64,000 nucleotides of DNA from an uncultured Kofleriaceae bacterium (GTDB lineage Bacteria; Myxococcota_A; Polyangia; HGW-17): contig CAZEZP010000078.1 of NCBI GenBank assembly GCA_964516435.1, positions 118,707 through 182,706 of the forward strand, given 5' to 3'. The stretch's first letter is position 1. The number at the start of each line of letters is the position of its first letter. The position numbers were made by a program, and so were the translations under genes. Below are positions 20,156-61,955 of the stretch, one piece after another. A model generated the notes under the pieces. The model made no database searches and had not been told where the DNA came from. It saw nothing but the letters and a program-made list of their open reading frames with translations.

Positions 20156-20184
20156 GGAAAGGGAAGAAAAGAAAAAAAGAGAAA

Positions 20185-41646: not shown

Positions 41647-41738
41647 ATCGGAACCTTTGAAAAATTCTGCAATTTGTTGATTTTCCAATAAAAAAAGTTC
41701 TTGACAAAACATTTGGTTCTCTGTACAAAGGAAATGCC

Positions 41739-41831
41739 ATGACTTCATGGTCTGATTGTTTCCAGGTTCTACAAGAGGCCCTGCAGTATAAAGAATTGCC
41801 ACTTTTTCCATGGCATGAACCTAAGCAGTGA
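41739..41831 (+). CDS. candidate 30-aa small ORF in the AT-rich intergenic region
   Basis: AAAGGAAA Shine-Dalgarno 4-6 nt before the ATG. Peptide MTSWSDCFQVLQEALQYKELPLFPWHEPKQ. No homology recognised, so this is speculative. Confidence 0.2.
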   Translation: MTSWSDCFQVLQEALQYKELPLFPWHEPKQ

Positions 41832-42118
41832 AAATAGAGACACAAACAAAACAAAACAACATTACACAATTTTTTTCATTTTTTTTGCTCCTTGTTATTG
41901 TTTGAAAATTTCAAAAAAAACCGAACAAATCAACGATAGATAAAATCAAAACTTTGTAAATTAAAATTAATAAAAATGTATAGGTTTGTCAAGCCGGTTT
42001 TTTCATTAAAAATTTTTCAGCGTGAGAAACACGAATACCGGAACTTCTGTCAGATGCAGGAAAAACTTCCGTCTTTCAGCGAAGAAGACCATTTTGCGGT
42101 CTTCAGAAAGGATTGCTC

Positions 42119-43231
42119 ATGAAAACGATGAACGAACAGGAAATGCGCCGGCAATTTGAGGCCGAATACCAGAAAACCCGCCAGAAGAACTTCAAGCGTC
42201 CCAACATTCTGGTGATCGGCTATACGGGAGCCGGAAAAACATCCCTGATCCAGACGATCCTGGGCAATGACCTGGTGCCGGAAAGCAAGATCGGCAGCGG
42301 AAAGCCCGTCACCCAGGGATACGAATACTTCGAAAACGAACTGATTCGCCTCTGGGATTCCAAGGGCTTCGAACTCGGCCACACGGAAGCGGAGTTCATG
42401 GAGAACACGCGCCGCTTCCTGCGGGAGCGCCAGAACGATCCGGACGTGGACAATCACATCCACCTGATCTGGTATCTCATCCAGGGGCCTTCCGCCCGCG
42501 TCACGGATTGCGACCGCAGTCTGATCCAGAACATTCTCCCGAAAAACCGCACGCTCGTGGCGATCAGCAAGGTCGACATCACGCGTCCCCAGCAGGAAGC
42601 CGCCATCCGTGAAATCGTCGAATCCTGCGGAATTCCGGCCAGCCAGATCTTTGCGGTATCCGATGCGCAGGCGAGATCCATCGGCGTCAGGGAGTTGGTG
42701 GCGCGCTCGTATGAGATGCTTCCGGACGCCTACCGGGCCGCTTTCGTGGATGCGCAGATCGTGGACCGCGAGATGAAGATTGCCGAAATCCGAAGCCGCA
42801 AGGGCAAGGCTTCGGCCATAATCTCTACCGCCACGGCGGCCGCAGCGGCCATTGGCGCCACTCCCATCCCCGTTTCCGATGCACCGATCCTGATGGGCGT
42901 GCAGGTGAGTCTGATCGGTTCCCTGGCGGCCCTGTACGATTTGCCGAAAGAAGGACTGAAACAACTCGCCTATCCCCTGCTTCTTCGTATGGTCGGCATA
43001 TACACGGCTTCCAGTCTGCTGAAACTCTTTCCTTTTCTGGGTTCTGCGATCAACGCGGCCGTCGCGGGCACGCTCACCGGTGCCCTGGGCTGGTACGTCG
43101 CCAATAAGTTCGAGAAAGCCGCCATCGCCCGCATCGAATCGAACTCACAGTATTATATCGACAACATCGATTTCGATATCGATGAATTCATGAACTTCAA
43201 GAATCAATACGAAAAGGAGCAGGGCAGATGA
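42119..43231 (+). CDS. GTPase-domain protein with C-terminal membrane/DUF697-like region
   Basis: G1 GYTGAGKTS, G3 DSKG, G4 SKVD. The C-terminal hydrophobic Gly/Ala-rich segment resembles YcjF/DUF697. AAAGGA Shine-Dalgarno. Confidence 0.7.
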   Translation: MKTMNEQEMRRQFEAEYQKTRQKNFKRPNILVIGYTGAGKTSLIQTILGNDLVPESKIGSGKPVTQGYEYFENELIRLWDSKGFELGHTEAEFMENTRRFLRERQNDPDVDNHIHLIWYLIQGPSARVTDCDRSLIQNILPKNRTLVAISKVDITRPQQEAAIREIVESCGIPASQIFAVSDAQARSIGVRELVARSYEMLPDAYRAAFVDAQIVDREMKIAEIRSRKGKASAIISTATAAAAAIGATPIPVSDAPILMGVQVSLIGSLAALYDLPKEGLKQLAYPLLLRMVGIYTASSLLKLFPFLGSAINAAVAGTLTGALGWYVANKFEKAAIARIESNSQYYIDNIDFDIDEFMNFKNQYEKEQGR

Positions 43232-44250
43232 AACCCAACATTCTCGTATGTGGAAAGACGGGGTCCGGAAAAACCTCGCTCATACAGGCGATCACCGATG
43301 ACGGGACCGTTCCGGAAAGCGCCATCGGCCATGGTGCGCCCGCCACGCGGGGATTCCAGGTGTATTCGACCCCGGCTGCCAATTTCATCGATACGGAGGG
43401 CTTTGTGCCCGGGCAGTCCCTGGAAGAAATGGTCGAATTCATCCGTGCGGAAATGCGGCGCCGGCTGGCAAGCGACTCGCCCGAATTTCTGGTGCATTGC
43501 ATCTGGTTCTGTGTGGACGGCAGCGGCGCCCGCATCACGGATGCGGAAATGCAGGTGATTCGGCATTTTTCGTCGCGATGCCTCCTGGTCCTCACCAAGA
43601 TGGACCTGCTCGAGGGGAGTGACCGCGGCAGGAAACAACGGGAAGAACTGCATGCCGCGGCGCAATCCTGCCTGGATGCCTCCCGCATCGTGATCGTATC
43701 GGCGAAGGACAGGACGGGATTGAAAACGCTCGTTGAGCAATCGGAAAATCTGGCCCGGGAAACCATGCTGGGCGCGCAGGAGGAATTGCGCCGTTTCTGG
43801 CAGACCTGGGAAGGATATTTCCGGGAACGCCGCCAGCAGTGGCTGGCGCGTGCCGCACAACGGGCCGATGAAGCCATCAGATGGGCAGCCGGCCGGGCGG
43901 CGGCCATTGCCATCGTTCCCATTCCGCTGGCCGACGTGGGACCGCTGGTGCTCAATGAAATCTACATGATCCACCGGATTGGAAATGCATATGGCATCAG
44001 TGTCACGCAGTCCATGGTGGCCATGTTGCTGGGCGCCAGTGCGGCCAGCACTCTGGGAAAAATCCTGGCCAGTTTCCTGCCGGGCTTCAAGATCCCCATC
44101 GCCGCCGCCATCACCTACGGTCTGGGCAAGGGCGTCAAGGCGTATTTCGAATCCGGCATGGAACTCAGTCCGGAAGAACTGAAGATACTCGTCCAGGAAG
44201 AAACGGAAAAAGCCAGGAAAAATGATTTTCAACCCATTCGGGAAGAATGA
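43228..44250 (+). CDS. GTPase-domain protein, paralogue of the upstream gene
   Basis: G1 GKTGSGKTS, G3 DTEG, G4 TKMD, and a similar C-terminal DUF697-like region. ATGA overlap with the upstream paralogue. Confidence 0.7.
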   Translation: MKPNILVCGKTGSGKTSLIQAITDDGTVPESAIGHGAPATRGFQVYSTPAANFIDTEGFVPGQSLEEMVEFIRAEMRRRLASDSPEFLVHCIWFCVDGSGARITDAEMQVIRHFSSRCLLVLTKMDLLEGSDRGRKQREELHAAAQSCLDASRIVIVSAKDRTGLKTLVEQSENLARETMLGAQEELRRFWQTWEGYFRERRQQWLARAAQRADEAIRWAAGRAAAIAIVPIPLADVGPLVLNEIYMIHRIGNAYGISVTQSMVAMLLGASAASTLGKILASFLPGFKIPIAAAITYGLGKGVKAYFESGMELSPEELKILVQEETEKARKNDFQPIREE

Positions 44251-44346
44251 AATTTTGCTGTAGAGTTCCTGCTTTTTAATAATCTTCCAAAAAAATGGTT
44301 GTCTGATTTGAAAAGTTGTGAAAATACTCAGTCAAAGGGGTTTGTC

Positions 44347-46803
44347 ATGACACAATCAAAAAACATGGAAATCCTCCTTTTGTATAACAAAATTATCAAG
44401 CGGCTGGTTCGTTCTGGTCGCAACAAATATCCACACCCCTATTTAAAAAATTTGATTAAAGAAATAAAAATTTATGGATTGAATCTTGATCCACTTGTGG
44501 TGTGGATTCCTGATTCAGATTGTATTTTTAGATTGAAATTTCTCGTTATTTTTATTGGAAAATTATTTGATCTTTATAGAAAAAGCATAGAGTTGGATGC
44601 CTATGAAAAATTTGTAAGGTATATTGATTTTTTTGAAAATTTAAAAAAAGATTGTTTTTATCCATTAAAAAATATTCTGGATAAAGAAATAGAAGAGAGA
44701 AAAATAACCTTCAAAGAGTCTTTAGAAAAGAAAAAGAAACGTGAGAGAAAGAGTCAGATTCAAAACGGTCCAAAAGACAAAAATCCATTCAAAAGCAACC
44801 AAGCATTGCAGTCAGGTGAAAACCCAGAATCGAAACAACCGCGGAAATTGTTCTTGAAACCGCGGCCCATCAATGTGGGATTCCGGGAAAAACTCAATAA
44901 AATCATATCGATATACGTTGATGAATCCTGGCCGCATGAGGAAATTGCCGGAATTCTGGCTGGCATCGTATGGCTCGGAGAAAAACCGGATCCCCAGGTT
45001 CTGCCGATTCCTCCGCAGCATACTCGCGGAACTGACAATATGCGGCATTATCTCGAAAGACTCGATGCCTGCGACCGGGCCATTCCGTTTTTCGTGGAAT
45101 TCGAGCCGCCTCCGGAAATATCGCGCGGATTGGCCTATGAACAGATGGTGCATGAGACGCTTCTGGTGGTTTTGGGATGGCTGCTGCCGGAAAAACTGGA
45201 ACTGAAGGCTGGGGAAACCGTAGGGGTGAACGTCGTTTGCGAGGCGATTGCCGGATACGAGCATGGAACCGATCATACGCGGGAATTTCAGGGAATTCTG
45301 ACCCAGGCGGCCCGGCGCAACCCTTCCCTGTTCCAGAGGTGGCGGATCCAGAAATTCCAGTGGGTGCAAAAAATTGGAGGACTGCCAAATAAATTTTCGG
45401 ATTCCCAGATCGAGGAACAGGGATACCTGGCGTACGGGGATTTGCTGGCATACCTGGCGTTCCGCAACACCAATGACAATGCCGCCGCCGTGGCCAGACG
45501 AATTGGCTTCGACAGTTTTCCCAACCGGATGCGCATTTCCCCCGGGTTGCTCTCGACGCTGGAGTTTCTGCAGTCCCATCAGACTTTCCGTCCGGACGTG
45601 TTTCTGGATCAGATGGCGCCCAACCAGCATCTGCCCTTCCTGCAGGCGTTTTTCGACAATGTGCGGCAAGCGCTTGCACAGGACAAAAAAGCACGGCTTT
45701 CCCTGCTGGAGGAACTGGACCGGCGCTATCAGGAGAAAGTGCGCGATCTGCACGCGTTGTCCCGACAGTTTTCCCTCGTGCAGCGGGTGGTAGGCGAACT
45801 CTCCGAAGATGCGCCGCGACGTCTTCGCCTGCTGGACCTGGGAATCCGGCTGCAGCATGCCAACCATTTCGGAGATCCGGAAAAACTGGGAAACCTGGAG
45901 GCCAACTACGCGCAACTGCGTGAGATCGCCCTGGAAAACGGCGATGCCGACCTGGTGGCGCACGTGGATCTGAATCTGGCCGTCCGGGCCGCGGACCGTT
46001 TCGAGCCCGAGGAAGCCCTGTCGATCGTGGAGGAACTGCTCGAAGAGGAGCACCGCCTTTCCCTTCTTTTCAGGGGCCGGGCCCATTCGGCACGCGGCCA
46101 GTACCTTTCGATGATGGAAGACCATGAGGAAGCCCGCCGCGAGTTCGAACGGGCGATTTCGCTCTTCGAGCGGGCCGACCTGAGCCCCGGGGAGCGTCTC
46201 GGGGAACTCGATCAGACGGGCATTTACCGCGCGTTCGCGGCCATCGATGCCGAGGATCCGGATGCGGAAACGCTGGTCGCCGCCCTGATGCGACCTGGAG
46301 AACCGAACCTGTCGCTGGAGAACCAGTTTCGCCATCACCTGTATGTGCGCTGGCTGGATTCGCTCGACGAGTACGCGGAAAAACGCCGGGCATACATGGA
46401 AAACGTCACACGCGAAATCCTGCCGGATACGCACCCGTGGCAGTTGATCGCCATGTATCGCGGTCTTTTCGCCCTGGAGCAGGAAAAGGACGAAGATGCC
46501 ATTTTCTGGCTGCGCCAGGCCATCGACATCGCCAGCCAGGGAGCGGGAGGCAGCCATGGCGCCACCTTGCGCATGATGGCCGCCGTCATTGCCACGCTGG
46601 CCTGGGTGACCACGGAAGAAGAAGAATTCCACAGGCGTGCCCTGGTGCTTCTCGACGGTGAAGCGCCGAATCCCGTCCGGCTCGAGGACGTGCTTCCTGT
46701 TGTGCGTGAAAAAACCGGATTTCTGCGGGAGGTGCTCGAGCGATATCCGCCTGCCGATTCGCTGGACGATGTCCTTTCGGTATTGACATTCAACTACAGG
46801 TAG
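44347..46803 (+). CDS. large hypothetical protein with TPR-like helical C-terminal half
   Basis: AAAGGGG Shine-Dalgarno before MTQSKN; the ORF is open from 44299. The N-terminal 180 aa are K-rich and AT-rich, the rest GC-rich and helical-repeat-like. Confidence 0.5.
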   Translation: MTQSKNMEILLLYNKIIKRLVRSGRNKYPHPYLKNLIKEIKIYGLNLDPLVVWIPDSDCIFRLKFLVIFIGKLFDLYRKSIELDAYEKFVRYIDFFENLKKDCFYPLKNILDKEIEERKITFKESLEKKKKRERKSQIQNGPKDKNPFKSNQALQSGENPESKQPRKLFLKPRPINVGFREKLNKIISIYVDESWPHEEIAGILAGIVWLGEKPDPQVLPIPPQHTRGTDNMRHYLERLDACDRAIPFFVEFEPPPEISRGLAYEQMVHETLLVVLGWLLPEKLELKAGETVGVNVVCEAIAGYEHGTDHTREFQGILTQAARRNPSLFQRWRIQKFQWVQKIGGLPNKFSDSQIEEQGYLAYGDLLAYLAFRNTNDNAAAVARRIGFDSFPNRMRISPGLLSTLEFLQSHQTFRPDVFLDQMAPNQHLPFLQAFFDNVRQALAQDKKARLSLLEELDRRYQEKVRDLHALSRQFSLVQRVVGELSEDAPRRLRLLDLGIRLQHANHFGDPEKLGNLEANYAQLREIALENGDADLVAHVDLNLAVRAADRFEPEEALSIVEELLEEEHRLSLLFRGRAHSARGQYLSMMEDHEEARREFERAISLFERADLSPGERLGELDQTGIYRAFAAIDAEDPDAETLVAALMRPGEPNLSLENQFRHHLYVRWLDSLDEYAEKRRAYMENVTREILPDTHPWQLIAMYRGLFALEQEKDEDAIFWLRQAIDIASQGAGGSHGATLRMMAAVIATLAWVTTEEEEFHRRALVLLDGEAPNPVRLEDVLPVVREKTGFLREVLERYPPADSLDDVLSVLTFNYR

Positions 46804-47119
46804 TTTTTCAAGATTCAAGAAATTTTTCGAAATGAATGAAATAACCTTTTTTCGATTTCGATTTTTGTTGAAATCCCTGTGACTTCAAAGGCGAACATCG
46901 GTGGAACCCAACTTTCCTTTTGACCATCAGAACCAGAAAGCCCGTAAAAACGTGGATTTCACGGCATCCAGCGTGCTTCTCTGCACATTGGGTACAACAT
47001 GGACGGTTATACCGGAAGTTGCAGGCATGATGTGCAGGGAGATGTTTGGCTGAGTCGTCAGAAAAGCCCGGGCATTCCGTCCGCGAAACGGAAGTTCGGG
47101 AGAATCTTGGAGGCACGAA

Positions 47120-48331
47120 ATGAGCGGACGCAAGGATTACCCGGTGTATTCGAGCCAGTTGGAACAAGTGGTGGGCCGATTGCGCGGTCAGATGCAAAAC
47201 CAGCGGCAGGAACTGAAACGGCAGATGGATGCGAAGATTTCCAGCATGCAGAGCCAGATGCAGGGATATGTGAAACAGCGGGTGAATTTTTTGCATCAAA
47301 ACATCCAGCAGGTGGAAGCGAATTTTCAACGTGATCTGCAAAACATGCAAGGCAGATTGCAATCGTCCATAGATGCTGTACGGCGTCACGTGGATGCTTC
47401 CATTGGAAAGTTGCGCCAAGAACTGCGTCTCGAGCGTGAAAACAGGCAGAAAACTGCAGAAGAATGGATGCGGGTACAGGAGTTTCTGCTCACGGAGCTC
47501 GATCGGCTCCAGGCAGGCCGTTTTCGTCCGGTGGAAGCGCAGAAGCATGTGCAGATGCGGGAGTTGATGCAACAGAACATGGCCAGCGGGAATTTCGAAG
47601 CCGTCATTGGTCAGGTGCAGGCCCTCTACGTCGATTCCTTCGCCCTGCGCGCGGAACTGGAAATCGTCAACCAGCAGGCGGCGCAGATGGAAATGGAAAT
47701 CCGGCAGGGCATGGAGTTTCTTGCGCAGGCGCTCCAGAATCCGGTTTTGCGGCAGGAATACGGCACATCCGAAGGCGGGAAGGAACCGGTGGAAATCGAC
47801 CTGCGCTTCTGGGCCGAGGAAGCCTGGAAGGATTTGGAGTCGAGACAGGTCCAGTTGCAGGATGCCGTGCGGGACATGTCCCGGTTCGATATCGATGCGC
47901 TCCGGCAACTTCGCGAGAGCGTCGAAGCCACCTTGCAACTGCATGCGGAAGCGATGGAAGAAGGCTTGCGTCGCCATTTTCTGCACATAGCTAGCATGGA
48001 TCGGCAGGAAAGCATCGTCGAGGCGCTGGCACGCCAGGGCTTCGAGGTCATCGACAACTTCTTCGAGCAGGATGACGAGCGAAAAGCCAATGTACTGCTG
48101 CTGGAAAACGCCTCGGGAGAAAAGATCCTGGTGCGGGTGGTGCCCACCAGGGATGGAGAGAACATCAAGATCAGTTTCAGTTCGCTCAATCCCGTGACTC
48201 ATGGTTCCCGCATGCGGGCACTCAACCAGGCCATCGGCGTTCAGCCGAGGGAAGAACCCGGCTACGAGACACGGCCGGCGCCGCCCGAGGATTTCGATTT
48301 GGAGCGCTATCGCGTGAAACAGAAGGCATGA
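47120..48331 (+). CDS. Gln-rich coiled-coil protein
   Basis: GGAGG Shine-Dalgarno. Long heptad-repeat N-terminal two-thirds (MQNQRQELKRQMDAK...). No catalytic motifs. Confidence 0.55.
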   Translation: MSGRKDYPVYSSQLEQVVGRLRGQMQNQRQELKRQMDAKISSMQSQMQGYVKQRVNFLHQNIQQVEANFQRDLQNMQGRLQSSIDAVRRHVDASIGKLRQELRLERENRQKTAEEWMRVQEFLLTELDRLQAGRFRPVEAQKHVQMRELMQQNMASGNFEAVIGQVQALYVDSFALRAELEIVNQQAAQMEMEIRQGMEFLAQALQNPVLRQEYGTSEGGKEPVEIDLRFWAEEAWKDLESRQVQLQDAVRDMSRFDIDALRQLRESVEATLQLHAEAMEEGLRRHFLHIASMDRQESIVEALARQGFEVIDNFFEQDDERKANVLLLENASGEKILVRVVPTRDGENIKISFSSLNPVTHGSRMRALNQAIGVQPREEPGYETRPAPPEDFDLERYRVKQKA

Positions 48332-48903
48332 TCATGACTTTTTTGCGTGTGGCCGATTTTTGCCACAAAACCACGGCGTTCGGTCCGCAGCCCGCCTGTG
48401 TGCTGTGGCTGCAGGGCTGCACCCGCACCTGCCCGGGCTGCATCGCTCCGATGTGGCAGGATCCGGCCGGCGGTCAGGAGCATTCCGTGGCAAAGGTGCA
48501 TTCCTGGATCGAGCAGTCTGATATGCCCGTGCTGGTGGTCTCGGGGGGAGAGCCCCTGGATCAATGGCAAGGATTGCATGAACTCATGCGCACAACGTCC
48601 CGGGACGCACGAAGCGCCATTTTATATACGGGATACACCTATACGGAATTATTGCAGCATTCAGGCTTTCAATCGCTCATTCCATTTTTTGATTTGCTCA
48701 TTTGCGGCCCATACATCGAGGAATTGAACGATTCGAAAGGCCTTCGGGGTTCTTCCAACCAGGAGTTGATATTCCGGACGGCGCGCTTCGAGGCATGGCG
48801 GGAATGGTTCGTTTCCGGTGCGCGCACGCTGGAAGTGGAAATCCGCTCCGATTTCGTGCGCATGACGGGGATTCCCCCGGCAGGCATGCACCTGAATTTC
48901 TGA
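48328..48903 (+). CDS. NrdG-family radical-SAM activating enzyme homologue (anaerobic RNR activase-like), orphan
   Basis: CxxxCxxC cluster motif LQGCTRTCPGC, SAM-binding SGGEPL, and NrdG-like C-terminal blocks YTGYTYTELL and LRGSSNQELIF. Compare E. coli NrdG WTGYKLDELN and WRGSSNQVV. Confidence 0.75.
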   Translation: MIMTFLRVADFCHKTTAFGPQPACVLWLQGCTRTCPGCIAPMWQDPAGGQEHSVAKVHSWIEQSDMPVLVVSGGEPLDQWQGLHELMRTTSRDARSAILYTGYTYTELLQHSGFQSLIPFFDLLICGPYIEELNDSKGLRGSSNQELIFRTARFEAWREWFVSGARTLEVEIRSDFVRMTGIPPAGMHLNF

Positions 48904-48919
48904 GAGGCGGTGAGATTCG

Positions 48920-51469: not shown

Positions 51470-51478
51470 AGGTGAATC

Positions 51479-52072
51479 ATGTCGGATCCGAAACAGGCCT
51501 TTTTTCAGGAAATACGGAAAAGAATCCGCAACCATCCGGAAGGTGGCGTGCTGGAGGTCATGGATGCCATCCTGAAACTTTTCAACATGCTTCCGCCGAG
51601 TCATTCCTGGGGGCAATCCGATGCCTGGATGGAAAAGTTCCAGAAATTGATCGTAGCCATCGATTTTTGCGTGCATTCGGCGGGAATGGAAACGGAAAAG
51701 CAGAAAATCGCGCAGTTGCAGGAAAAGATTGAAAAAAACCAGAATGAGAAAAAAGCACTTGAAGATACGATTCAAAATTTGGAAAATACGCTGGGATTGG
51801 AAAACAAGACGCTGGCCGATTTGCGCGCACTCCTGGAGCAATTGCAGAGCATCGAATTCTTTTTGTCAGCAAACGAGTCCGTGCGCGTCTTGAGAGATCG
51901 GCTCAAGGACGACCAGCAGTTTTGCGTTTCGCTTCCGCAATGGCGCAAGGAGTATGAGAAAGACATGGAAAAAGCCCTGCAGCATCTCACGGAAGCCGAA
52001 AAGATCGTGCAAGTCATCAGCGAGGAATTCGAGCGGCATACCCGGGAAATCCAGGAACGCAACGGAAGGTAA
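51479..52072 (+). CDS. hypothetical coiled-coil protein
   Basis: AAGGTGA Shine-Dalgarno. 197 aa with a central KQKIAQLQEKIEKNQNEKKALEDTIQNLEN heptad region. Confidence 0.5.
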   Translation: MSDPKQAFFQEIRKRIRNHPEGGVLEVMDAILKLFNMLPPSHSWGQSDAWMEKFQKLIVAIDFCVHSAGMETEKQKIAQLQEKIEKNQNEKKALEDTIQNLENTLGLENKTLADLRALLEQLQSIEFFLSANESVRVLRDRLKDDQQFCVSLPQWRKEYEKDMEKALQHLTEAEKIVQVISEEFERHTREIQERNGR

Positions 52073-52081
52073 GGAGAAAGA

Positions 52082-53854: not shown

Positions 53855-53877
53855 TAAATATAAAGGAGATTTGAAGC

Positions 53878-55182
53878 ATGTCGGAAGGAAAAGTCATTCT
53901 CACCATGTATTCCAACCCGGATTACCTTCCGGGCAACCAGGTAGACCAGGTCATCGAGGGGGTGCTGGTCGTGGAGCCGCCGACGTCCAGCCAGAACGTC
54001 CAGACGGGCACGGATCTCGTGCTGCTGCTCGACTCCAGCGGTTCCATGAATGAAGCCTACTATGACGTGGGCATGTCCAAGCGCCAGAAGGTGGTGGAAG
54101 CCGTCCGTTCGCTTCTGCCGCTCATGTCGGATCTGGATACGCTGACATTCATCAGTTTCAATACAGGCGCTACTTTGTTGCTGGATCATGAGCGCAGGTC
54201 GGCATCCACCCGCATCGAAACCTGCCTGCAGGAATACATGGGCCAGGATGGCGGCACCAATTTCGAAGCCGCCATGCAGGTAGCCAGCACGGTGTGCCAG
54301 AACCGGGTCAACCCCGTTACCCGGCTCATTTTTTTGACGGATGGGCACGCATATGGCGGCAACCCCCAGCGGGCCGTTGAAATTGCCGGGCGTATGGCCA
54401 GTCAGGGAATCATGATCGATTCCATGGGCATTGGCGCCGAATTCAATTTCGATTACATGCGTCAGTTTTCCGCCCTCTGTGCTGGCATCACGGAAAACCT
54501 CGCCCGGGAGGCCAATCCGCAGGTGATATTCCGCAACATCCTGCGTTCCGGCCAGCGCACGATAGCTGCCAACCTCCAGTTGCAGGTGTTTTTCGGGAAT
54601 CACGTGCGCGACGTGGAAATCTACCAGTGCGCGCCCGAAAAGCGCTCGCTGTCCGCCTCTTCCACCACGAGTGCCCATGGGACGTTCTACCAGATGCTCA
54701 TCGGGGATTTGTCCATGGGAAATCCCAAGCAGTTCGTCATGCGCTGCCATGCGGACCTGCCGGATGCCTCCTATGTCAAACTGGCGGATATCCTGGTTAC
54801 CTACCGGGATCCCGCGACCGGCAACCCGGGAAAGATGGAAATCGCCTGGACGATCAACCTGTCGAAAGACGACAAAAACGTGCGCTATGACAGTTTCGTG
54901 CGCGACTGCCTGCGGGAAGTGGAACTGCTCATTGGTCTGGAACAGGCCTTGCGCCTCTACCAGAATGGCAACATCGCCGAGTGCCTGAAGAAAATGGACG
55001 GTCTGATCAAGGATGCCCGGAGCCTGGGCGACGTGGAGCAGGAGCGCATGCTGAGAAAGGCTTTTGAAAAGGTTCAGCGCAACGAGAATCTTTCCCAGGA
55101 GGAACTCAACCGGATGCTACATCGCTCCTCGCGATCGAGCCGGGTGCGCACGACACAGCCGAAGAATACATCCACGTTGTAA
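53878..55182 (+). CDS. von Willebrand factor type A (vWA) domain protein
   Basis: MIDAS motif DLVLLLDSSGSM, plus GGTNF and IFLTDGHAYGG. AAAGGAG Shine-Dalgarno. Confidence 0.75.
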   Translation: MSEGKVILTMYSNPDYLPGNQVDQVIEGVLVVEPPTSSQNVQTGTDLVLLLDSSGSMNEAYYDVGMSKRQKVVEAVRSLLPLMSDLDTLTFISFNTGATLLLDHERRSASTRIETCLQEYMGQDGGTNFEAAMQVASTVCQNRVNPVTRLIFLTDGHAYGGNPQRAVEIAGRMASQGIMIDSMGIGAEFNFDYMRQFSALCAGITENLAREANPQVIFRNILRSGQRTIAANLQLQVFFGNHVRDVEIYQCAPEKRSLSASSTTSAHGTFYQMLIGDLSMGNPKQFVMRCHADLPDASYVKLADILVTYRDPATGNPGKMEIAWTINLSKDDKNVRYDSFVRDCLREVELLIGLEQALRLYQNGNIAECLKKMDGLIKDARSLGDVEQERMLRKAFEKVQRNENLSQEELNRMLHRSSRSSRVRTTQPKNTSTL

Positions 55183-55194
55183 TCGAGGTGTTGC

Positions 55195-56250
55195 ATGACG
55201 CAGAAAGCCTTTCTTTGTGCGGGCACTTCATCGAACAACTATTTATTCAACCCATTTTATCCAGAAACGGACGTAGAATGGACCATTCCGGAGAACTTTC
55301 CGGAAGAAAACGTTCAACTTCACAAGGATGAGAACGGACATCTGCACATCCAGTGCAAGGAAGCCGATGATGTCTATGTTTTCATCTGCAACCGGGGGGA
55401 CATGAAACAGGAAATCGAGAGCCGGTTTGTACGGTTGCCGGAAGTCCTGGAGATTCCCGTGAATGGTTCCTGGCAGTTCCCGCTTTTGGACGGTGCCGTT
55501 TCTCTGCAATGCGAGATGCTGCCGGAAATCGGTCGTCTGGAGCGTTCGCAGGCCGGAAATGAATGGAAACTGATGCCTTTGCAAGAAGGATATGCCACAT
55601 GCACCTGCGTATGGGGTGAAGAAAAAAAATATAAAGTGCAGTCCCAGTTCCGGCTGCGTATCATCCAGGTATCCACGTACTTCGCTCCGTCCGAATCGAG
55701 CCGTCCCGGAATTTTGGCTTCCCCGGACAATGCGAGGGATTCCCTTTCGGCGGCCGCAGATTCTCGGCAAACGGGGCAGGAAGCATCCGGAAAAACCGGG
55801 ATACAGGCGCAGGATTCCGATTCTCCGGCGGATTCCCTGGCATCCCCCAATTCTTTATCGGGAAGTTGGACGGGAAGCATCGATGCCGTTCCAGAGTTGC
55901 GCGGCCCCGTTTTTCTGGTCGTGCGGAAAAAAAATGGAACGGAAGAAATTTCGCGCCATTCCGTGGGATTGGGAAAGAGTCTCGTCGTGGGTAGGGCTTC
56001 CGGATCGGCGCCGCTGGCCGTGGATGTGGATCTCGCTCCCCATCTTTCCAGGGAGAACCGGGACCTGTGTTCCCGCAACCAGTTGCGCGTATTCATTTCC
56101 AACAACCGGGTATACGTGAAAAACATTGGAAGCGTGGATGTCGAACTGGATGACGGAAAACTGCTGCCGGCCGGACAGGGGATGTTTCTGGCCGTTGGCC
56201 GACAGTTGGAAATCGCAGGAGAGATTGCGCTGACGCTGCAGGAAGGATGA
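55195..56250 (+). CDS. FHA-domain protein
   Basis: C-terminal FHA fold (GKSLVVGRASGS...SRNQLRVFISNNRVYVKNIGSVDVELDDGKL). N-terminal 200 aa unknown, with a Ser-rich linker. Confidence 0.7.
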   Translation: MTQKAFLCAGTSSNNYLFNPFYPETDVEWTIPENFPEENVQLHKDENGHLHIQCKEADDVYVFICNRGDMKQEIESRFVRLPEVLEIPVNGSWQFPLLDGAVSLQCEMLPEIGRLERSQAGNEWKLMPLQEGYATCTCVWGEEKKYKVQSQFRLRIIQVSTYFAPSESSRPGILASPDNARDSLSAAADSRQTGQEASGKTGIQAQDSDSPADSLASPNSLSGSWTGSIDAVPELRGPVFLVVRKKNGTEEISRHSVGLGKSLVVGRASGSAPLAVDVDLAPHLSRENRDLCSRNQLRVFISNNRVYVKNIGSVDVELDDGKLLPAGQGMFLAVGRQLEIAGEIALTLQEG

Positions 56251-56251
56251 C

Positions 56252-58582
56252 ATGCTGCCCACCATCAGGACCTTCGAGAACAAGGGCGTACAGTACCAGA
56301 TTCCAGAAACCCTGCAGCAGGGCCGCTACCGAGTCACCGGGGTGCTGGCCCGCGGGGGAATGGGAATCATCTACAAGGCGCTGGATACGCGTCTGCACAA
56401 CAAGATGGTGCTGATCAAGAGCCTCATCTACAAACCATCCATTTTCCAGTACAAAAGCGACAAGGCGCGTGATGAGGAAATCCTCGCCCGGCGGGAGCAG
56501 ATGCGTTCCGAGAAGGTCGTATTGCAATACTTGTGGGAACGCGGTATTGGTGGGGTTCCAATCGTCCTGGATGCATTCGAGGATTTCAATCCCATGCTCC
56601 ACGGTCCGCACCGGGACGAATCCACGGGCGATCTGTACACGTGCAGTGAGTTTTCAACTTCGGATCCCTATCTGGTGCTCAATTATTTCGACGGGGTTCC
56701 CGTTGGCGACTGGGTGTTGGCAGACCCGACGCAACGGCAGAATTTTGCCAAAAGGATTCTGGTCAGCATCACCAAGATTCTGGAGGTGTTGCATCAACCC
56801 TACCGGATGACACTGACGGATGGCCGGGAAATCGTCCTGCAATGCATCTATGGCGACATGAAGCCGGGAAACATCATTCACACCACGGACAAGTCCATCG
56901 TGCTGATCGATCTGGGCAGCGTCGTCAAGAAAATCAATGGCAATATCGAAGGCATCATCACCACCACGCCGGGCTACTGCGCGCCCGAGGTCAACGAGCA
57001 GCTGCAGAATTCCATCCTTGCGGCGGATGTCACTCCTGCGGTGGATGTCTACTCGCTGGCCGCCACGCTCTACGAAATCCTGGCCCGGCAGCCCCCGGCA
57101 GTTTCCATGGGCCACAACCAGTTCGATTTTTCCTTGATTCGCAGGGATTTTCCGGCATGGGAAAAATTTTTACTCACAGCGCTCGATGAACTTCCACAGA
57201 ACCGGTTTCAGAACATGGCGCAGATGCGTGCGGCTTACTATGCCATGGTGGAAGGAAAAACACAGGCAAGTCCACCCGTTGATCGCGGCGAGATTTCCCG
57301 CCGGCTCATGCCGCCGCAGCGGCGGGTTTTCTTTGCTTTTCCGGGCTGGGAAACCCGCCATGAACATTGGGAGCAGAGAATCTTCCTGATGGCCACCCTG
57401 CAGAAGTTGGCCGGCAATTTCTATCTCAATGCCCAAGGGCTGTATGTAGACGCTTCCCGGTTGACTCCTTTGATACCGTTGACTTCCGTGGAAAGAACGA
57501 TGTATTTTCCTTCCTTGAAGTTGCAGTTGCAACAGGTATCGAAGATTTTATGCAAAAACAAGGTTTATTTGCCTGAATTGCTGGAAGAGTATTTTTCAGA
57601 TGAATATTTTTATATAATTTATAAAAGCAAGCAGGGGAATTCCATCAACAAGGATAACCCGGATAAAAATTACATATACAAGAGAATTTCCAGGATCATC
57701 AATACATTCATCGACATGCATGCCAGCGGCATTCTCCTGCCCGAGATTTCCTGGGATGAAATCCGGTTCGACATCACGGATGCGCCGTTGTTCACCCATG
57801 TTTCCCGCCTTACCCATTTGGAGCATCCGCAGCAAGCCTTTCCGCAGTTCCTGCTGCGGATGCTCCAGCCGCGGCATTCGGCGCCGGAAATCGTGCAACT
57901 CAATGAATTCAACGAAAAAACCTACAGCTACCTGGTGGGCCGGCTGCTGCTGGAATTTTTGGCCGATGCCCGCCGGATTTCGTTGGATGACATATATCGG
58001 GGACAGGATTTTCTGGAAAAAGATGCGCTCGAGTCCTGGGCAGGACATCTTACGAACGATCCCGTGCTGCAGAAGTTTCTGTTGCATTCCCTGGCCATTC
58101 CATTGAATTTCCGGGCGTCCCTGTGGGATCTTCGCAGCCTGCTGGCCGACGGAGATATAAACACCCATCAGAGAGCGGGACACGCCGCCGCCGTGCAGGG
58201 GAATCTGATTACGATCCTCTCCAATTTCCATTTGGATTATCAACGGATCTATGCACGGGCTCTCGAGGTTTTTGGAAAGAGGATTCTGTATCAATCATTT
58301 GCCGTCCGGAGAAATGGCGGTACGACCAAATTACCCTCCTTCGTGCAAGTCGTTGTGCATGCCCAGCCGGAAGTCGCCCTGCAGCAAATTCTCCAGCAGC
58401 ATGCCCAGCCGTATCTGATCCTGTGCATCAATTCGCACCACGATGCATGTTTTCAGGTCATCGATCGTCATGCCCGGAATTTTAAGGGGATATTCATCCT
58501 GACAGACAATTTCAATTATTCCTTCCGGCATGCCAACGTGCATGTTCAGACGCTGCTCGAATTTCAGAAGAGGGGAACATGA
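56252..58582 (+). CDS. Ser/Thr protein kinase (non-RD; catalytic motif YGDMKPGN) with about 450-aa C-terminal extension
   Basis: G-loop ARGGMGIIYKA, beta3 Lys VLIK, catalytic loop IYGDMKPGNIIH, DLG (in place of DFG), and TTPGYCAPE. Confidence 0.8.
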   Translation: MLPTIRTFENKGVQYQIPETLQQGRYRVTGVLARGGMGIIYKALDTRLHNKMVLIKSLIYKPSIFQYKSDKARDEEILARREQMRSEKVVLQYLWERGIGGVPIVLDAFEDFNPMLHGPHRDESTGDLYTCSEFSTSDPYLVLNYFDGVPVGDWVLADPTQRQNFAKRILVSITKILEVLHQPYRMTLTDGREIVLQCIYGDMKPGNIIHTTDKSIVLIDLGSVVKKINGNIEGIITTTPGYCAPEVNEQLQNSILAADVTPAVDVYSLAATLYEILARQPPAVSMGHNQFDFSLIRRDFPAWEKFLLTALDELPQNRFQNMAQMRAAYYAMVEGKTQASPPVDRGEISRRLMPPQRRVFFAFPGWETRHEHWEQRIFLMATLQKLAGNFYLNAQGLYVDASRLTPLIPLTSVERTMYFPSLKLQLQQVSKILCKNKVYLPELLEEYFSDEYFYIIYKSKQGNSINKDNPDKNYIYKRISRIINTFIDMHASGILLPEISWDEIRFDITDAPLFTHVSRLTHLEHPQQAFPQFLLRMLQPRHSAPEIVQLNEFNEKTYSYLVGRLLLEFLADARRISLDDIYRGQDFLEKDALESWAGHLTNDPVLQKFLLHSLAIPLNFRASLWDLRSLLADGDINTHQRAGHAAAVQGNLITILSNFHLDYQRIYARALEVFGKRILYQSFAVRRNGGTTKLPSFVQVVVHAQPEVALQQILQQHAQPYLILCINSHHDACFQVIDRHARNFKGIFILTDNFNYSFRHANVHVQTLLEFQKRGT

Positions 58583-60024
58583 ACTCGCCGGTTTATGAGG
58601 AAACCCGGAAAAAGGCGCTCGAGGCGCTCCGGAACAAGGACTACGAGTCGTCATTTCTGCTGCACCTCCAGCAACTCGAATGGTTGCGGCGGGAACCGGT
58701 GGACGTGGAGAATCTCCAGGAACGCCAGCGGGTGCTCAACAACCTGCTGGTGAGCCTGCATGGCCGCATCCAGCGCGGGCAGGCGGAAAATCCACGGGAA
58801 TCCTGCCGGTTGTTCCAGGATTTTCTGAAGGAATACCTGGACGTATCCGGAAACATTCCATTCGAACAGCGCCGCCGGGGAGCCGATAATGTCATTTCGG
58901 ACCTCTACCGCCATGCCCTGCGCGTGACGCTGCTGCAGGTAACGGAAGACGATGGCATTTCCCTGCAGGAACAGGAAAGGCAACTCAAGTGGCATGTGCG
59001 GGATATTTACGACCGGTTCTTCCAGGTATTTTGCCGTGATGGCGCTTTCCCATATGAAATTTTGCTCGATCCATCTATGGATATGTTGTATTTTGAACGT
59101 CGAAATATTTTGCGTAAAGGTCATTTGCAGCAAAATTATTATAATACAATCTGGATGGCAGAGGTGTTCCTGCAATTTTTCTCGGGAGAGCATATGGCAC
59201 GGGTGCGCTCCGAGATCCTGCTGCTGTGCAGTGATGTGAGCCAGTTTCTGCCGCCGCCCCCTGAACATTCCCGGATGCGGTTTGCCGCCGAAATGCAGGC
59301 GATTTCGTGGCTGGACAAAAGTCTGGCGGAATATCCGGAAAACCGGGTGGCACGCGAACGCCGCCAGCAACTGGTTTCGTTCCTCACGGCGGCCGAGCAG
59401 ATCAACCGTTTCCGCCATGATGTCGTTTCCAAGATCGAATCCATCCGGGGAATCCTGGGGAAACTGCAGGAAAGGAATCCCGATGGGGAAAGCCGGCAGC
59501 AACTGCAGGCCGCCATGGTCCACGTGCGCACCATTCTGGGTTCGTTCCGCCTGACCATGCGCGAGCGACCCTCTTTGCGGGGCGTAGCGTCCATGGAATC
59601 GTTCCTGGAACGCTTCGCGGATGCAGATGTCACGGCCAAACTGCAGGGAACTCCGCGGCCGGTGGTGACGGACGAGGAATATCTGGCTCTCGTGGTGCAG
59701 AACCTGGTGCAAAATGCCCGGGAGGCCTATGCCCGGAACCGGATTTCCGGCGGGCAGGTGCATGTCGTGTTCGATTACGACCGTCTGGCGCTGGAAGTTC
59801 GGGATTGGGCCGGCGGCATTCCGGAGGAATTGCGTGCCAATGACAAATTGTTTGAGCCCTATGCCTCTTCCAAGGGCATCCAGCAGAATGCTGGTCTTGG
59901 TCTGGCCAATGTGCGGGAAGCCTGCCGGCTGCTGGAAGCTTCGATACGGTACGAAATCCTGAAACAGGATGGCCATACAGGTACGGTTTTCATTATCACA
60001 CTGAAAGAACCAGAAAGGGATTGA
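58579..60024 (+). CDS. GHKL/histidine-kinase-like ATPase (cytoplasmic, degenerate H-box)
   Basis: C-terminal HATPase_c N-box LVQNLVQNAREA, G1 VRDWAGGIP and G2 GLGLA. FRHDVVSKIESIRG is a possible divergent phosphoacceptor box. ATGA overlap with the kinase gene. Confidence 0.7.
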   Translation: MNSPVYEETRKKALEALRNKDYESSFLLHLQQLEWLRREPVDVENLQERQRVLNNLLVSLHGRIQRGQAENPRESCRLFQDFLKEYLDVSGNIPFEQRRRGADNVISDLYRHALRVTLLQVTEDDGISLQEQERQLKWHVRDIYDRFFQVFCRDGAFPYEILLDPSMDMLYFERRNILRKGHLQQNYYNTIWMAEVFLQFFSGEHMARVRSEILLLCSDVSQFLPPPPEHSRMRFAAEMQAISWLDKSLAEYPENRVARERRQQLVSFLTAAEQINRFRHDVVSKIESIRGILGKLQERNPDGESRQQLQAAMVHVRTILGSFRLTMRERPSLRGVASMESFLERFADADVTAKLQGTPRPVVTDEEYLALVVQNLVQNAREAYARNRISGGQVHVVFDYDRLALEVRDWAGGIPEELRANDKLFEPYASSKGIQQNAGLGLANVREACRLLEASIRYEILKQDGHTGTVFIITLKEPERD

Positions 60025-60027
60025 AAC

Positions 60028-61020
60028 ATGCGTTCACTCAAAATCTTGATCATGGACGATGAAATCTTTGCCAATGACCAGAATCCGGCTATCCAGGCCG
60101 CCCAGCGCCTGCTTGAGGAAGGGCATCTTGTGCAGGTGACCGACCGGATGTCGGAAGTGCTGGGGGGCCTGCAGAAGAAGTTTTTCGATGTCTATGTGCT
60201 GGATATCGACATGTCCCTGGTGCAGGACATCGACAATGCCAGCGGTTCCAATGTCGGCCGGGCGCTTCGGAAATTCAGTTCGCTGACCAACATCGTCGTC
60301 TTCAGTGCGCGCGGCGAGGTGCCCGACTGGTTCACGGCCGCCAACTACCATTTCCAGGGATACGTATTCAAGGGCGATGACGGTGTGGAGAATCTGGCCC
60401 GCCATATCCGGGAACTGGCCGAGCGTCCGATTCCGGTGCCCCGCTTCGATCTCGGAGAACTCGAGCCGCCTTCGCGGGTTCTCGTGTACCGCCATCCCAG
60501 CCTGGGAGAACGCTTTGCGCCCGAGCGCATCCGTCCCTGGATCCAAGCCGTTTATCCCGATGCGGAAATCCATGTTTGCACGCAGTTGCAGGAAGTCGTG
60601 GATTTCCAGCAGGAATGCGGCTGCATTCTGCTCTTGCACACCATGTTCCGGGACCAGGAGAGCACCTGGAGCGATTTGGAGCGGATTTTTGGGCGCCAGC
60701 CCAGACCGCATGTCATCGTGGCCGTGGATAGTTCCGGGGATACGCCCCAGACGCATCGCGGCACCATTCTGAATCTGGTAAACCGGCATCCGTTCCGCCT
60801 TCTGGACCTTGCGGATCCCCGTTTCGAATCCAGTCTGCAGCAGGCCATCGAACGCTCCCGTTTCTGGTATGGCCGCCAGGAAGTATTCGAATATCCCGAG
60901 GAATTCCGGGATCGCATCGGCATGCCACTGACGGCAGAAGACGTGGCCTTGATCCGCGAGCAGGATGAGCGTTTCGATGAACTTTCAATGCAGGACGAGG
61001 GGGATGATCATGAAGCATGA
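60028..61020 (+). CDS. response-regulator receiver (REC) domain protein with uncharacterised C-terminal domain
   Basis: REC motifs ILIMDDE, phospho-Asp YVLDIDM, VVFSA, YVFKG. The C-terminal 200 aa are of unknown function. Confidence 0.7.
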   Translation: MRSLKILIMDDEIFANDQNPAIQAAQRLLEEGHLVQVTDRMSEVLGGLQKKFFDVYVLDIDMSLVQDIDNASGSNVGRALRKFSSLTNIVVFSARGEVPDWFTAANYHFQGYVFKGDDGVENLARHIRELAERPIPVPRFDLGELEPPSRVLVYRHPSLGERFAPERIRPWIQAVYPDAEIHVCTQLQEVVDFQQECGCILLLHTMFRDQESTWSDLERIFGRQPRPHVIVAVDSSGDTPQTHRGTILNLVNRHPFRLLDLADPRFESSLQQAIERSRFWYGRQEVFEYPEEFRDRIGMPLTAEDVALIREQDERFDELSMQDEGDDHEA

Positions 61021-61702
61021 AATTTTCCTTCTGGATACGAACGTCCTGTATGAAATCATTACCCTCTACAGTCCAGAGCCTTCGTCTCTGGCCAAGAAAA
61101 TCGACGGATTTTTGAAAGGCAGAAAACTCGTCTATATTCCGGATATCGTGTGGACGGAATTTACGGCTTCCATATTTCAAAAGAAAATTGATTATAGCGA
61201 TTACAACTCGTGGCATCAAAGAGTTCTATCTTCATATCTTCATGTGTATCAATATCTGCTTGAACATAAAGTAAGAGATTACAAAACCTCCGGAATCGCA
61301 TCCGTCGTGAACATCGATTTCATCGGCTTGGCCCGCGATTTCGCATTCATCCGGCCGGAAGATGATTTCATCCAGTCTCTGGTTGGTGAAACCAGCCAGA
61401 AACTGCAGGCTGCACTGGCGCAGGAGAATCCCGACCCGGCGACCCTGGAATTCATTGAGCGGCAGCGCCACAACCTGGCATCCGGAAAACTCATGGATGG
61501 CTGCGATACCATGATTCTGGCCAGCGCCATCGTGTTTGCCATCCAGCGTGCCGATTCCCGCGTGATTCTTCTGTCCAACGACCGCTGGATGGGCAGGGTC
61601 GCCAACCATTTATTGCAAAATCTGAACAAATATGGCCTGGAAGACCTGAAAAACCGGAGTTTTTCCTTGACAGTGGAAAACCCGAAAAACTTTCGCTTTT
61701 GA
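61010..61702 (+). CDS. PIN-domain nuclease (VapC-like fold, extended)
   Basis: N-terminal IFLLDTNVLYEI and the downstream acidic residues (DGCDTMILASAI) of the PIN fold. GAGGGGG Shine-Dalgarno. The start overlaps the REC gene stop. Confidence 0.7.
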   Translation: MKHEIFLLDTNVLYEIITLYSPEPSSLAKKIDGFLKGRKLVYIPDIVWTEFTASIFQKKIDYSDYNSWHQRVLSSYLHVYQYLLEHKVRDYKTSGIASVVNIDFIGLARDFAFIRPEDDFIQSLVGETSQKLQAALAQENPDPATLEFIERQRHNLASGKLMDGCDTMILASAIVFAIQRADSRVILLSNDRWMGRVANHLLQNLNKYGLEDLKNRSFSLTVENPKNFRF

Positions 61703-61718
61703 TGAGAAAGGAGCATCC

Positions 61719-61955
61719 ATGAATCAATGGAATTATTATTATGTTTTTTCATCAAAAAGTCTTCAAAAATACATTTTACATGGAAATAAATTGCAGTTTC
61801 TGGTAGGCGCAAGCAATCTGATTGAAGGCATTCCAACAAAAGTGATTCCCGCGGTTCTGGATTCGATGGGATTGCAGGCAGACACTGACTACCAGATTCT
61901 TTCTGCCTCGGCAGGCAGTACCCGCATCCTGTTTGCTTCGAAAGCGTCCGCATGA
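61719..61955 (+). pseudogene. 78-codon ORF with strong Shine-Dalgarno, probably the 5' remnant of a gene truncated by an IS256 insertion
   Basis: AAAGGAG Shine-Dalgarno 7 nt upstream. The ORF stops exactly where the high-GC IS-like sequence begins. The N-terminus MNQWNYYYVFSSKSLQKYILHGN... was not recognised. Confidence 0.4.

Follow-up and report, generated by a model that had tools for sequence, protein, structure and literature searches.

We analysed a 64,000-nucleotide stretch of the genome of an uncultured Kofleriaceae bacterium (GCA_964516435.1, contig CAZEZP010000078.1, positions 118,707 to 182,706), hereafter called the window, which contains an island of fourteen intact plus-strand genes, g1 to g14. 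The last eleven of these, g4 to g14, are in our judgement probably an intact copy of a rare and uncharacterised ancillary cassette of type III CRISPR-Cas systems, orphaned here. These 11 genes (47120-61702) form the evolutionary unit, to which the remainder of the island does not belong: the two GTPases and the TPR protein encoded ahead of them are absent from every other locus. The unit consists of three blocks: block A (g4-g7) encodes two coiled-coil proteins, a radical S-adenosylmethionine (SAM) enzyme and an AAA+ ATPase; block B (g8-g11) a PP2C phosphatase, a vWA protein, an FHA protein and a Ser/Thr kinase (STK); and block C (g12-g14) a histidine kinase (HK), a response-regulator (REC) protein and a PIN nuclease. 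An earlier note, made from the letters of the window, treated the whole island as one unit, and this holds for g4-g14, whose order is kept elsewhere, but not for g1-g3, which among the compared loci occur only in the window and in a near-identical metagenomic contig, L004.

The cassette loci, denoted here by L-numbers, were recovered through homologues of g6, g13 and g9. The complete order g4-g14 is found in the window and L004, L002, L003, L007 (an uncultured Desulfospira chromosome) and L032. In L001/L028, L006/L031 (a Cloacimonadota metagenome-assembled genome) and L029 the gene order is the same up to the ends of the contigs. Between lineages the protein identity is 20-56% and the GC content of the loci 32-57%. 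The succession of NrdG-like, CbbX-like, PP2C, vWA, FHA, STK, GHKL, REC and PIN genes, whose recurrence the earlier note had proposed as a test, is clearly found again, the full order occurring in at least 8 lineages. The residues expected for catalysis or phospho-acceptance are conserved in the kinase, the phosphatase, the vWA metal-ion-dependent adhesion site (MIDAS), the histidine kinase, the receiver, the PIN domain, the radical-SAM cluster and both AAA+ modules. Window and L004 are 99.77% identical over 14.6 kb, with 18 synonymous and 14 non-synonymous differences, and the ratio of non-synonymous to synonymous rates, roughly 0.26 in this small sample, shows signs of purifying selection on the intact cassette.

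Shorter forms also occur. L030 (5684-16032, 25% GC) has the order PP2C-FHA-vWA-STK-HK-REC-PIN-PIN and consists of blocks B and C without g4-g7; its FHA and vWA genes are swapped, and the second of its two PIN genes has a degenerate active site. L055/L056 carry STK-HK-REC-PIN at a contig end, and L058/L059 a split kinase with HK-REC; in L058 (GCA_016583985.1, NRSD01000012.1; 107-14300) the kinase is divided into a 350-aa kinase and a 462-aa protein, and there is no PIN gene. L053 (1-20686) has HK-REC-PIN only, that is, block C; McrBC genes are found farther upstream, as are five small unknown open reading frames (ORFs) and one gene for a CbbX-like AAA+ protein of 802 aa. Block A is optional, because it is absent in L030 and L053.

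The cassette family is rare and discrete. The g13 family comprises 52 cluster representatives at E<=1e-30 among 1.84 billion, and a pattern scan with the vWA protein (g9) recovered a full-length orthologue in just two species genomes of 185,579. The scan of the genome collection with patterns from the N-terminal domain of g6 gave no match, and neither PLSDB nor IMG/VR holds the cassette on a plasmid or virus.

To this conservation of order is added a conserved company. The cassette or its sub-modules are embedded in, or adjoin, loci of type III CRISPR-Cas systems in 10 of the 12 lineages with readable flanks, the window counted. In L007 the cassette is flanked by CRISPR arrays, one with 11 and one with 14 repeats of 36 nt, and Csx19 and a TIGR03986 type III RAMP protein are encoded upstream; L029 likewise has genes for a Csx19-like protein and a RAMP protein upstream. 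L032 has a 12-repeat array upstream and a fusion of Cas6, reverse transcriptase (RT) and Cas1 downstream. Genes for RT-Cas1, Cas2 and an adenosine deaminase of 686-702 aa are found directly upstream in L001 and L030, with Cas6-RT-Cas1 in L030. At the other end of the cassette, the PIN gene of L006 overlaps csx20, which is followed by a gene for a 481-aa Cas10-like protein and a RAMP gene, and that of L053 is separated by 36 nt from Csx1, after which comes a complete Cmr1-6 (type III-B) operon with Cas6. Behind the PIN gene of L055 come genes for a CARF(Cas_NE0113)-adenosine deaminase, for a Cas10-like protein of 526 aa and for two fused RAMP proteins (667 and 465 aa). L058 has convergent genes for Cas1, Cas2 and RT and an array of at least 93 repeats. 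On our reading, TTGAGAC or ATGAAAC closes the repeats of L007, L032 (reverse complement) and L058; this is where the 8-nt CRISPR RNA tag usually lies. The small Cas10-like proteins of L006 and L055 are without HD domain and keep the Cas10/Cmr2 palm2 domain and the GGDD motif. With partner Cas10 proteins that lack HD but are cyclase-competent, such type III systems would have to depend on ancillary effectors.

The window itself retains remnants of such a partner on either side of the cassette. The gap between g3 and g4 contains the 5' relic of a gene for a CARF-adenosine deaminase of the Cad1-like kind (46955-47053, plus strand), which reads in one frame SSVLLCTLGTTWTVIPEVAG and then a stop. 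This relic matches residues 12-32 of the L001 deaminase with 14 of 21 identities (tblastn, E=1.6e-4) and includes the N-terminal CARF motif vLLcTLG..W.viPE that is common to the deaminases of L001, L030 and L055; in L001 and L030 full-length deaminase genes occupy the same position, directly upstream of the cassette. Behind g14 follows a 78-codon 5' stub of a gene for a small HD-less Cas10-like protein (61719-61955, plus strand), with the relic of an IS256 element about 200 bp downstream. From residue 3-6 onwards the stub can be aligned to the N-terminal ends of the Cas10-like proteins of L006 and L055 (blastp, 1e-7 and 8e-6). No CRISPR array and no other cas gene was found in the 64 kb. Of the CRISPR partner, only the cas10 and deaminase stubs remain in the window. 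The cassette is therefore orphaned here, and the window offers an evolutionary snapshot of a cassette that has survived the loss of that partner. The likeness to anti-phage or abortive-infection islands that the earlier note had seen is right in spirit; it is too unspecific, because the cassette accompanies type III loci and the window has the two stubs on either side of it, a companionship that was overlooked.

Block C stands alone in L053. The protein encoded by g12 (58579-60024, plus strand) is a histidine kinase of the cytoplasmic type (Pfam HATPase_c 1.7e-14), in which a helical, TPR-like domain at the N-terminus is combined with a dimerisation and histidine phosphotransfer (DHp) domain. 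The H-box, N, G1 and G2 boxes are invariant in 8 orthologues (H280-D281, N375, N379, D409, G412, G413, G439, G441), and a PDB profile match to ThkA extends across the DHp and the catalytic and ATP-binding domains (4e-11). The earlier note had called this protein a GHKL ATPase, but its invariant H-box shows that it is a true histidine kinase. The product of g13 (60028-61020, plus strand) is a response-regulator protein in which the REC pocket is complete (D10, D11, D59, S93, K115). In its AlphaFold2 (AF2) model (mean predicted local distance difference test score, pLDDT, 80.6) a five-stranded REC/flavodoxin-like domain comes after the REC domain, the chain ends in an acidic helix and there is no DNA-binding domain. 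Together the two proteins carry the marks of a two-component pair, with the histidine kinase boxes on one side and the acidic pocket, phospho-acceptor Asp, Ser/Thr and Lys of a receiver on the other. The third gene, g14 (61004-61702, plus strand; longest ORF from 60965), overlaps g13 and encodes a predicted PIN nuclease. The Pfam matches to PIN_12, PIN_4 and PIN (1.6e-4 to 8.5e-4) are at or below the cut-offs, and the D-E-D-D acidic tetrad is intact in 8 of the 9 sequences, all but the degenerate second copy of L030. Judged from its sequence, g14 would provide the cassette with an effector able to arrest the cell or to destroy nucleic acid. The overlap with g13, in the absence of a second output domain, points to direct control of g14 by g13.

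Block B encodes the components of a reversible Ser/Thr phosphorylation switch. The PP2C phosphatase g8 (52082-53854, plus strand; Pfam PP2C_2 5e-10, SpoIIE 6e-9) has a 270-aa N-terminal domain, and its metal-binding and catalytic motifs NED..Y, DGVS, GDS and DG are invariant. The vWA protein g9 (53878-55182, plus strand; Pfam VWA_2 1e-12, vWA-TerF-like 29.9 bits, at the cut-off) has an intact MIDAS (DxSxS...T...D) and, in the alignment, a conserved C-terminal extension. The FHA-domain protein g10 (55195-56250, plus strand) is composed of a beta-rich N-terminus, a low-complexity S/T/P/Q linker and a C-terminal FHA domain. The window protein alone has no Pfam FHA match; among its orthologues, two of six match Pfam FHA (1.2e-4) and Yop-YscD_cpl, the alignment shows the signature GR..S..SRNH/Q..N.GS, and the match to PDB 3gqs reaches only E=0.43. 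The kinase g11 (56252-58582, plus strand; Pfam Pkinase 6e-14) is invariant in the Gly loop, K56, D202, K204, N207, D220 (DxG) and APE, and we call it non-RD because the residue preceding D202 is not Arg. Its C-terminal half (residues 350-776, 57299-58582) has the pattern PE...W..EKS.SY.AG, and the C-terminal halves of two orthologues give weak Pkinase matches (1.2e-3 and 0.15), which suggests a tandem kinase-pseudokinase architecture as far as sequence can tell.

Block A begins with the first gene of the cassette, g4 (47120-48331, plus strand), which encodes a coiled-coil protein that invariably starts with MSGRK, has a conserved globular part towards the C-terminus and carries, 22 residues from that end, the invariant motif G381-[YF]-E...PA. 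The search for g4 homologues gave 2 matches and was swamped by coiled-coil words. True glycyl-radical sites carry R-V-x before the Gly, and we considered whether g4 might be a glycyl-radical protein; the sole support is G381-[YF], the residues preceding it do not fit and there is no PDB match, so that we keep this only as an idea of low probability. The gene g5 (48328-48903, plus strand) encodes an NrdG-like radical SAM enzyme (Pfam Fer4_12 2.8e-22), which scores 69.4 bits over the whole of the NCBIfam NrdG model, whose cut-off is 126.1, and in which C31, C35 and C38 (CX3CX2C) and G73-G74-E75-P76 (GGEP) are invariant across orthologues. Neither NrdD nor another glycyl-radical enzyme is encoded near g5 in any cassette locus. 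The AAA+ protein g6 (48920-51469, plus strand) belongs to the CbbX/SpoVK/EccA family (Pfam AAA 2.5e-36, AAA_lid_6). Its best NCBIfam matches are SpoVK, CbbX and EccA at 1e-95 to 1e-113, all below the equivalog cut-offs, which makes it a member of the family and not an orthologue of a named protein. The alignment shows two Walker A/B modules in which GxPGTGKT and DEA are invariant. The N-terminal domain (residues 1-290, 48920-49790) is specific to the cassette, is without Walker A and has a disordered insert at residues 79-122. All Foldseek matches listed for its AF2 model (pLDDT 80) are AAA+ or clamp-loader-type ATPases (p97, NSF, spastin, RFC, ORC), the best at E=6e-4 with a TM-score of ~0.38. 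On this model the domain is a degenerate AAA+ fold, which would give g6 three AAA+-like domains, and CARF, for which it had been a candidate, is ruled out. The block closes with g7 (51479-52072, plus strand), a 197-aa coiled-coil protein whose position and size are kept in every full cassette and whose sequence is poorly conserved. The domain assignments of the earlier note were thus borne out by Pfam and NCBIfam, with the FHA domain visible through orthologues and its motif, and with a PIN match that is weak but accompanied by the conserved tetrad.

The way in which these proteins might work together can be outlined as follows. Recognition of target RNA by the type III complex would activate the GGDD cyclase of the small HD-less Cas10, and the product of Cas10, or the complex itself, would be read by a putative sensor within the cassette. 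The candidates for such a sensor are the TPR-like N-terminal domain of g12, the second REC-like domain of g13 and the N-terminal domain of g8; the domain of g13 is a candidate because a REC-like sensor of cyclic oligoadenylate has been proposed for the type III effector Cam2 (PMC11229360). His-Asp phosphotransfer from g12 to g13 would then proceed alongside a Ser/Thr phosphorylation switch that g11 writes, the FHA domain of g10 reads and the PP2C of g8 erases, with the vWA protein g9 as a possible scaffold. The output would be the PIN RNase g14, leading to RNA cleavage and to growth arrest or abortive infection, while the NrdG-like g5 and the AAA+ motor g6 would form an oxygen-sensitive arm of protein modification or remodelling, with the coiled-coil proteins g4 and g7 as its likely partners or substrates. 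Block A probably adds a protein-radical or remodelling step, because NrdG-type enzymes use proteins as substrates, the CbbX family remodels proteins by pulling terminal tails (as is established for CbbX), the termini of g4 are conserved and the hosts or sources, where identified, all look anaerobic.

In its most specific form the proposal is that type III immunity is wired to protein phosphorylation: a sensor that is not CARF, either REC-like or the TPR-like domain of the histidine kinase, would pass the signal through His-Asp and Ser/Thr phosphorylation to the PIN RNase, and the activase and the AAA+ unfoldase would execute an oxygen-sensitive, possibly irreversible step on g4. We put this forward tentatively and regard it, on balance, as doubtful. 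If it were true, the cassette would be the first CRISPR ancillary pathway with two-component signalling and radical chemistry. Should the link be functional, prokaryotic immunity would include signal conversion of a new class, in which a nucleotide or the state of a complex is turned into protein phosphorylation, and an orphan NrdG-like enzyme would have a testable role. The 11-gene module, held together across phyla, adds to type III loci a histidine kinase and receiver, a switch of kinase, phosphatase, FHA and vWA proteins, a radical SAM enzyme and a three-domain AAA+ protein.

Several points weigh against the cassette being an ancillary part of type III systems, or against details of the pathway just outlined. 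Adjacency to CRISPR loci does not prove functional coupling, all but one of the cassette loci are metagenomic, and the evidence is almost entirely metagenomic and positional. No cas gene is present in L002 and L003, for each of which one short flank is available, with a Schlafen/AlbA_2 gene in the former and genes for a methyltransferase and a HEAT protein in the latter. Neither Pfam nor the models of the g6 N-terminal domain and of g13 revealed CARF, SAVED or another recognisable nucleotide sensor. CARF is unsupported in the second domain of g13, which is REC-like in the AF2 model, and in g8 and g11, as hhalign with the Cad1 CARF profile gave probabilities of at most 1.4%. The CRISPR partner in the window is broken yet the cassette looks constrained, so that it could be working on its own, and we can only guess at the direction in which the signal flows and at what block A does.

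The same observations can be accommodated, with less success, by other explanations, and the one that comes nearest, though we think it unlikely, is a stand-alone anti-phage or abortive-infection system of the TerY-P kind, with its own sensing through vWA, FHA, kinase and phosphatase and a PIN nuclease that kills, placed beside CRISPR loci by the clustering of defence genes. As cited in PMC11090510, TerY-P combines a TerY-like vWA protein, a PP2C phosphatase and a Ser/Thr kinase (Anantharaman et al. 2012) and acts in anti-phage defence (Gao et al. 2020), where the triad, which resembles that of block B, defends alone. That the cassette of the window is intact and constrained although its cas10 is cut would agree with such independence, as would the neighbours typical of defence islands (Schlafen/AlbA_2 in L002, McrBC in L053) and the failure of models and hhalign to reveal a sensor of a Cas10 signal. 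Clustering of defence genes does not, however, readily explain why the cassette keeps company with type III systems in particular, as it does in 10 of 12 lineages, or why the linkage is so intimate, with the L007 cassette lying between arrays and with co-directional gaps of 26-91 nt into cas10, csx1 or cad1 in L006, L053 and L055. The vWA and PP2C proteins are also without a PADLOC match, and the OB or zinc-ribbon tail that TerY-P kinases carry is missing from g11.

Linkage of this kind could also arise if the cassette regulated CRISPR-Cas, its kinases sensing stress or infection and controlling cas expression, the activity of the complex or the uptake of spacers by RT-Cas1. The adaptation module (RT-Cas1, Cas2) often adjoins the cassette, as in L001, L030, L032 and L058, and a complete two-component pair with a reversible Ser/Thr switch is typical of regulatory circuits. 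We nevertheless consider regulation improbable, more so than stand-alone defence: the response regulator is without an output domain for binding DNA, the last gene of the cassette encodes a predicted nuclease whose active site is conserved, and an energy-consuming triple AAA+ protein and a radical SAM enzyme would be unusual in a mere regulator. Least credible of all, to the point of being nearly dismissible, is a chance row of housekeeping or signalling genes, drawn from anaerobic ribonucleotide reduction, AAA+ proteins of the Rubisco or sporulation type and cell-envelope kinases. Each domain family does have housekeeping members, and NrdG, CbbX and SpoVK are the best NCBIfam names, but every score is below the equivalog cut-off of its family, an NrdD or Rubisco gene is present in no locus, and the island has a GC content below that of the chromosomal flank and is bounded by an insertion sequence (IS) relic. 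The same gene order at 20-56% identity across phyla already contradicts such an explanation. An ancillary cassette of type III systems is the reading that we prefer.

The island that contains the cassette comprises 14 intact plus-strand ORFs at 42119-61702 and two gene stubs. The count of 16 genes given earlier does not agree with this, and it may have arisen because a gene caller splits g3 in two on L004. The description of a co-directional plus-strand cluster with short gaps and ATGA overlaps is consistent with these ORFs: the spacing within g4-g14 is -17 to +23 nt, three 4-nt ATGA overlaps are found across the whole island, and the only larger internal gaps are those between g2 and g3 (48 nt) and between g3 and g4 (316 nt). 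Promoter and terminator scans of the island performed no better than shuffles, so it is from spacing alone that the operon structure is proposed. Rfam and tRNA scans of the window gave no match inside the island. Both boundaries named in the earlier note were recovered. On the left, an AT-rich stretch of 566 nt (41553-42118, 37.5% GC) separates g1 from a type II secretion cluster and an Fe-alcohol dehydrogenase gene. The GC content of this dehydrogenase gene is 65.6%, that of the genes in the island 47-59%. On the right lies the frameshifted relic of an IS256-family (Mutator) transposase gene (62160-63422, minus strand), of which the fragments 62160-62756 and 62784-63101 match Pfam Transposase_mut (1.2e-32 and 2e-17) and a third, ~63240-63422, is assigned by reading only.

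The three genes at the left end of the island may form a separate membrane-associated module. The first, g1 (42119-43231, plus strand), encodes a P-loop GTPase with a DUF697-like hydrophobic C-terminal domain (MMR_HSR1 26.3 bits; DUF697 21.6 bits, below the cut-off), and g2 (43228-44250, plus strand), which overlaps it by 4 nt, encodes a paralogue with 29% identity to it (MMR_HSR1; Pfam DUF697 33.9 bits, above the cut-off). PADLOC gives both weak matches to the dynamin-like proteins LeoA/LeoBC. In the 834-aa protein of g3 (44299-46803, plus strand) residues 531-624 form a TPR region and the N-terminal third is rich in Lys; the first third of the gene (44299-45000) has ~39% GC. An extra base at 44536 frameshifts g3 in L004; a homopolymer or assembly error could be the cause, or g3 could truly be decaying there. 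We ruled out g3 as a relative of the deaminase, to which it has no similarity.

Some features elsewhere in the window may be recorded. The genes recF and dnaN (19121-21297, minus strand) are located in a stretch of 45-46% GC (~19-22 kb), the rest of the window having ~60%; such a low GC content is unusual for core replication genes and could reflect a second, acquired copy or a compositional anomaly near the origin. A 21-nt periodic repeat in ten overlapping copies (21913-22227) is found within the gene of a 1145-aa TPR protein (21615-25052). ARAGORN predicts an unusually long tRNA-Arg(CCT) of 97 nt (2069-2165, minus strand), and ~700 nt from it runs a series of 33-nt periodic repeats (2841-3046); neither has an Rfam match.

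When the cassette is compared with described systems, no single one covers it. PADLOC on the 14 proteins found no named system, which agrees with the earlier note, and gave only generic kinase, AAA and GTPase matches, with none for the PP2C, vWA, FHA, HK, REC, PIN and radical SAM proteins and only the generic PD-T4-6, mad6 and MkoA kinase models for g11. In the literature we found no paper on the 11-gene combination, its block structure or its mechanism, only catalogue labels. Among the CRISPR-linked metagenomic sets that Altae-Tran et al. (2023) catalogue only by label and locus picture, giving neither a description nor a gene count or mechanism, are a 'vwa + PPC + kinase system' (UAS-87, 14 loci), 'vWA + FHA + PP2C' (UAS-91) and related sets; the seed gene of UAS-87, ~324 aa by the catalogue entry, has the size of the g13 or g10 orthologues, and one of these sets, to go by its label, may be this cassette. 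A survey of ancillary effectors by Hoikkala left out loci with a Cas10 of <500 aa, so that the 481-aa protein of L006 was excluded outright and the 526-aa protein of L055 is just above the limit.

For individual parts the resemblance is closer. Similar to NrdG/PflA-type activases, g5 aligns across the whole NrdG model and keeps CX3CX2C and GGEP, and the hosts or sources of the cassette loci, where identified, all look anaerobic. It differs in a score far under the NrdG cut-off and in the absence of a partner gene for NrdD or another glycyl-radical enzyme from every locus, and the candidate target G381-[YF] near the C-terminus of g4 is without the R-V-x of true sites. With CbbX, SpoVK and EccA, g6 shares two Walker A/B AAA modules and AAA_lid_6, and it differs from them in its extra degenerate AAA+-like N-terminal domain and in loci that have no Rubisco, sporulation or ESX context. 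Block B has in common with TerY-P a vWA protein with MIDAS and an active-looking PP2C and Ser/Thr kinase. Here, in contrast, an FHA gene is inserted, the order is PP2C-vWA-FHA-STK, and the non-RD kinase is followed by a pseudokinase-like half and not by a zinc ribbon or OB fold, neither of which gave a match in the C-terminal half of g11, where only weak kinase-like matches were seen; g8 and g9 match none of the PADLOC families. According to PMC11090510, TerY-P attaches to larger defence systems (CoCoNuTs) and is joined by a tandem SpoVK-family AAA+ protein in one type III-A CoCoNuT extension, whereas in the cassette the triad is joined to the HK/REC/PIN trio and the radical SAM/AAA+ block and linked to type III CRISPR, not to McrBC or Ter genes.

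The comparison that bears most directly on our reading is that with the ancillary effectors of type III systems (Csm6/Csx1, Can1/2, Cad1, CalpL-T-S, SAVED-CHAT and the III-E Craspase). To our knowledge, all characterised pathways of this kind rely on cyclic oligoadenylates or SAM-AMP that are read by CARF, SAVED or a few other domains, and they consist of a single enzyme or a protease relay. Like these effectors, the cassette is embedded in type III loci with a cyclase-competent Cas10 and ends in a predicted non-specific nuclease, and multi-protein relays are already known among them. It differs in its eleven genes, among which no CARF or SAVED was found, and in combining phosphorylation of both the His-Asp and the Ser/Thr kind with a radical SAM enzyme and an AAA+ motor, none of which belongs to a characterised type III pathway.

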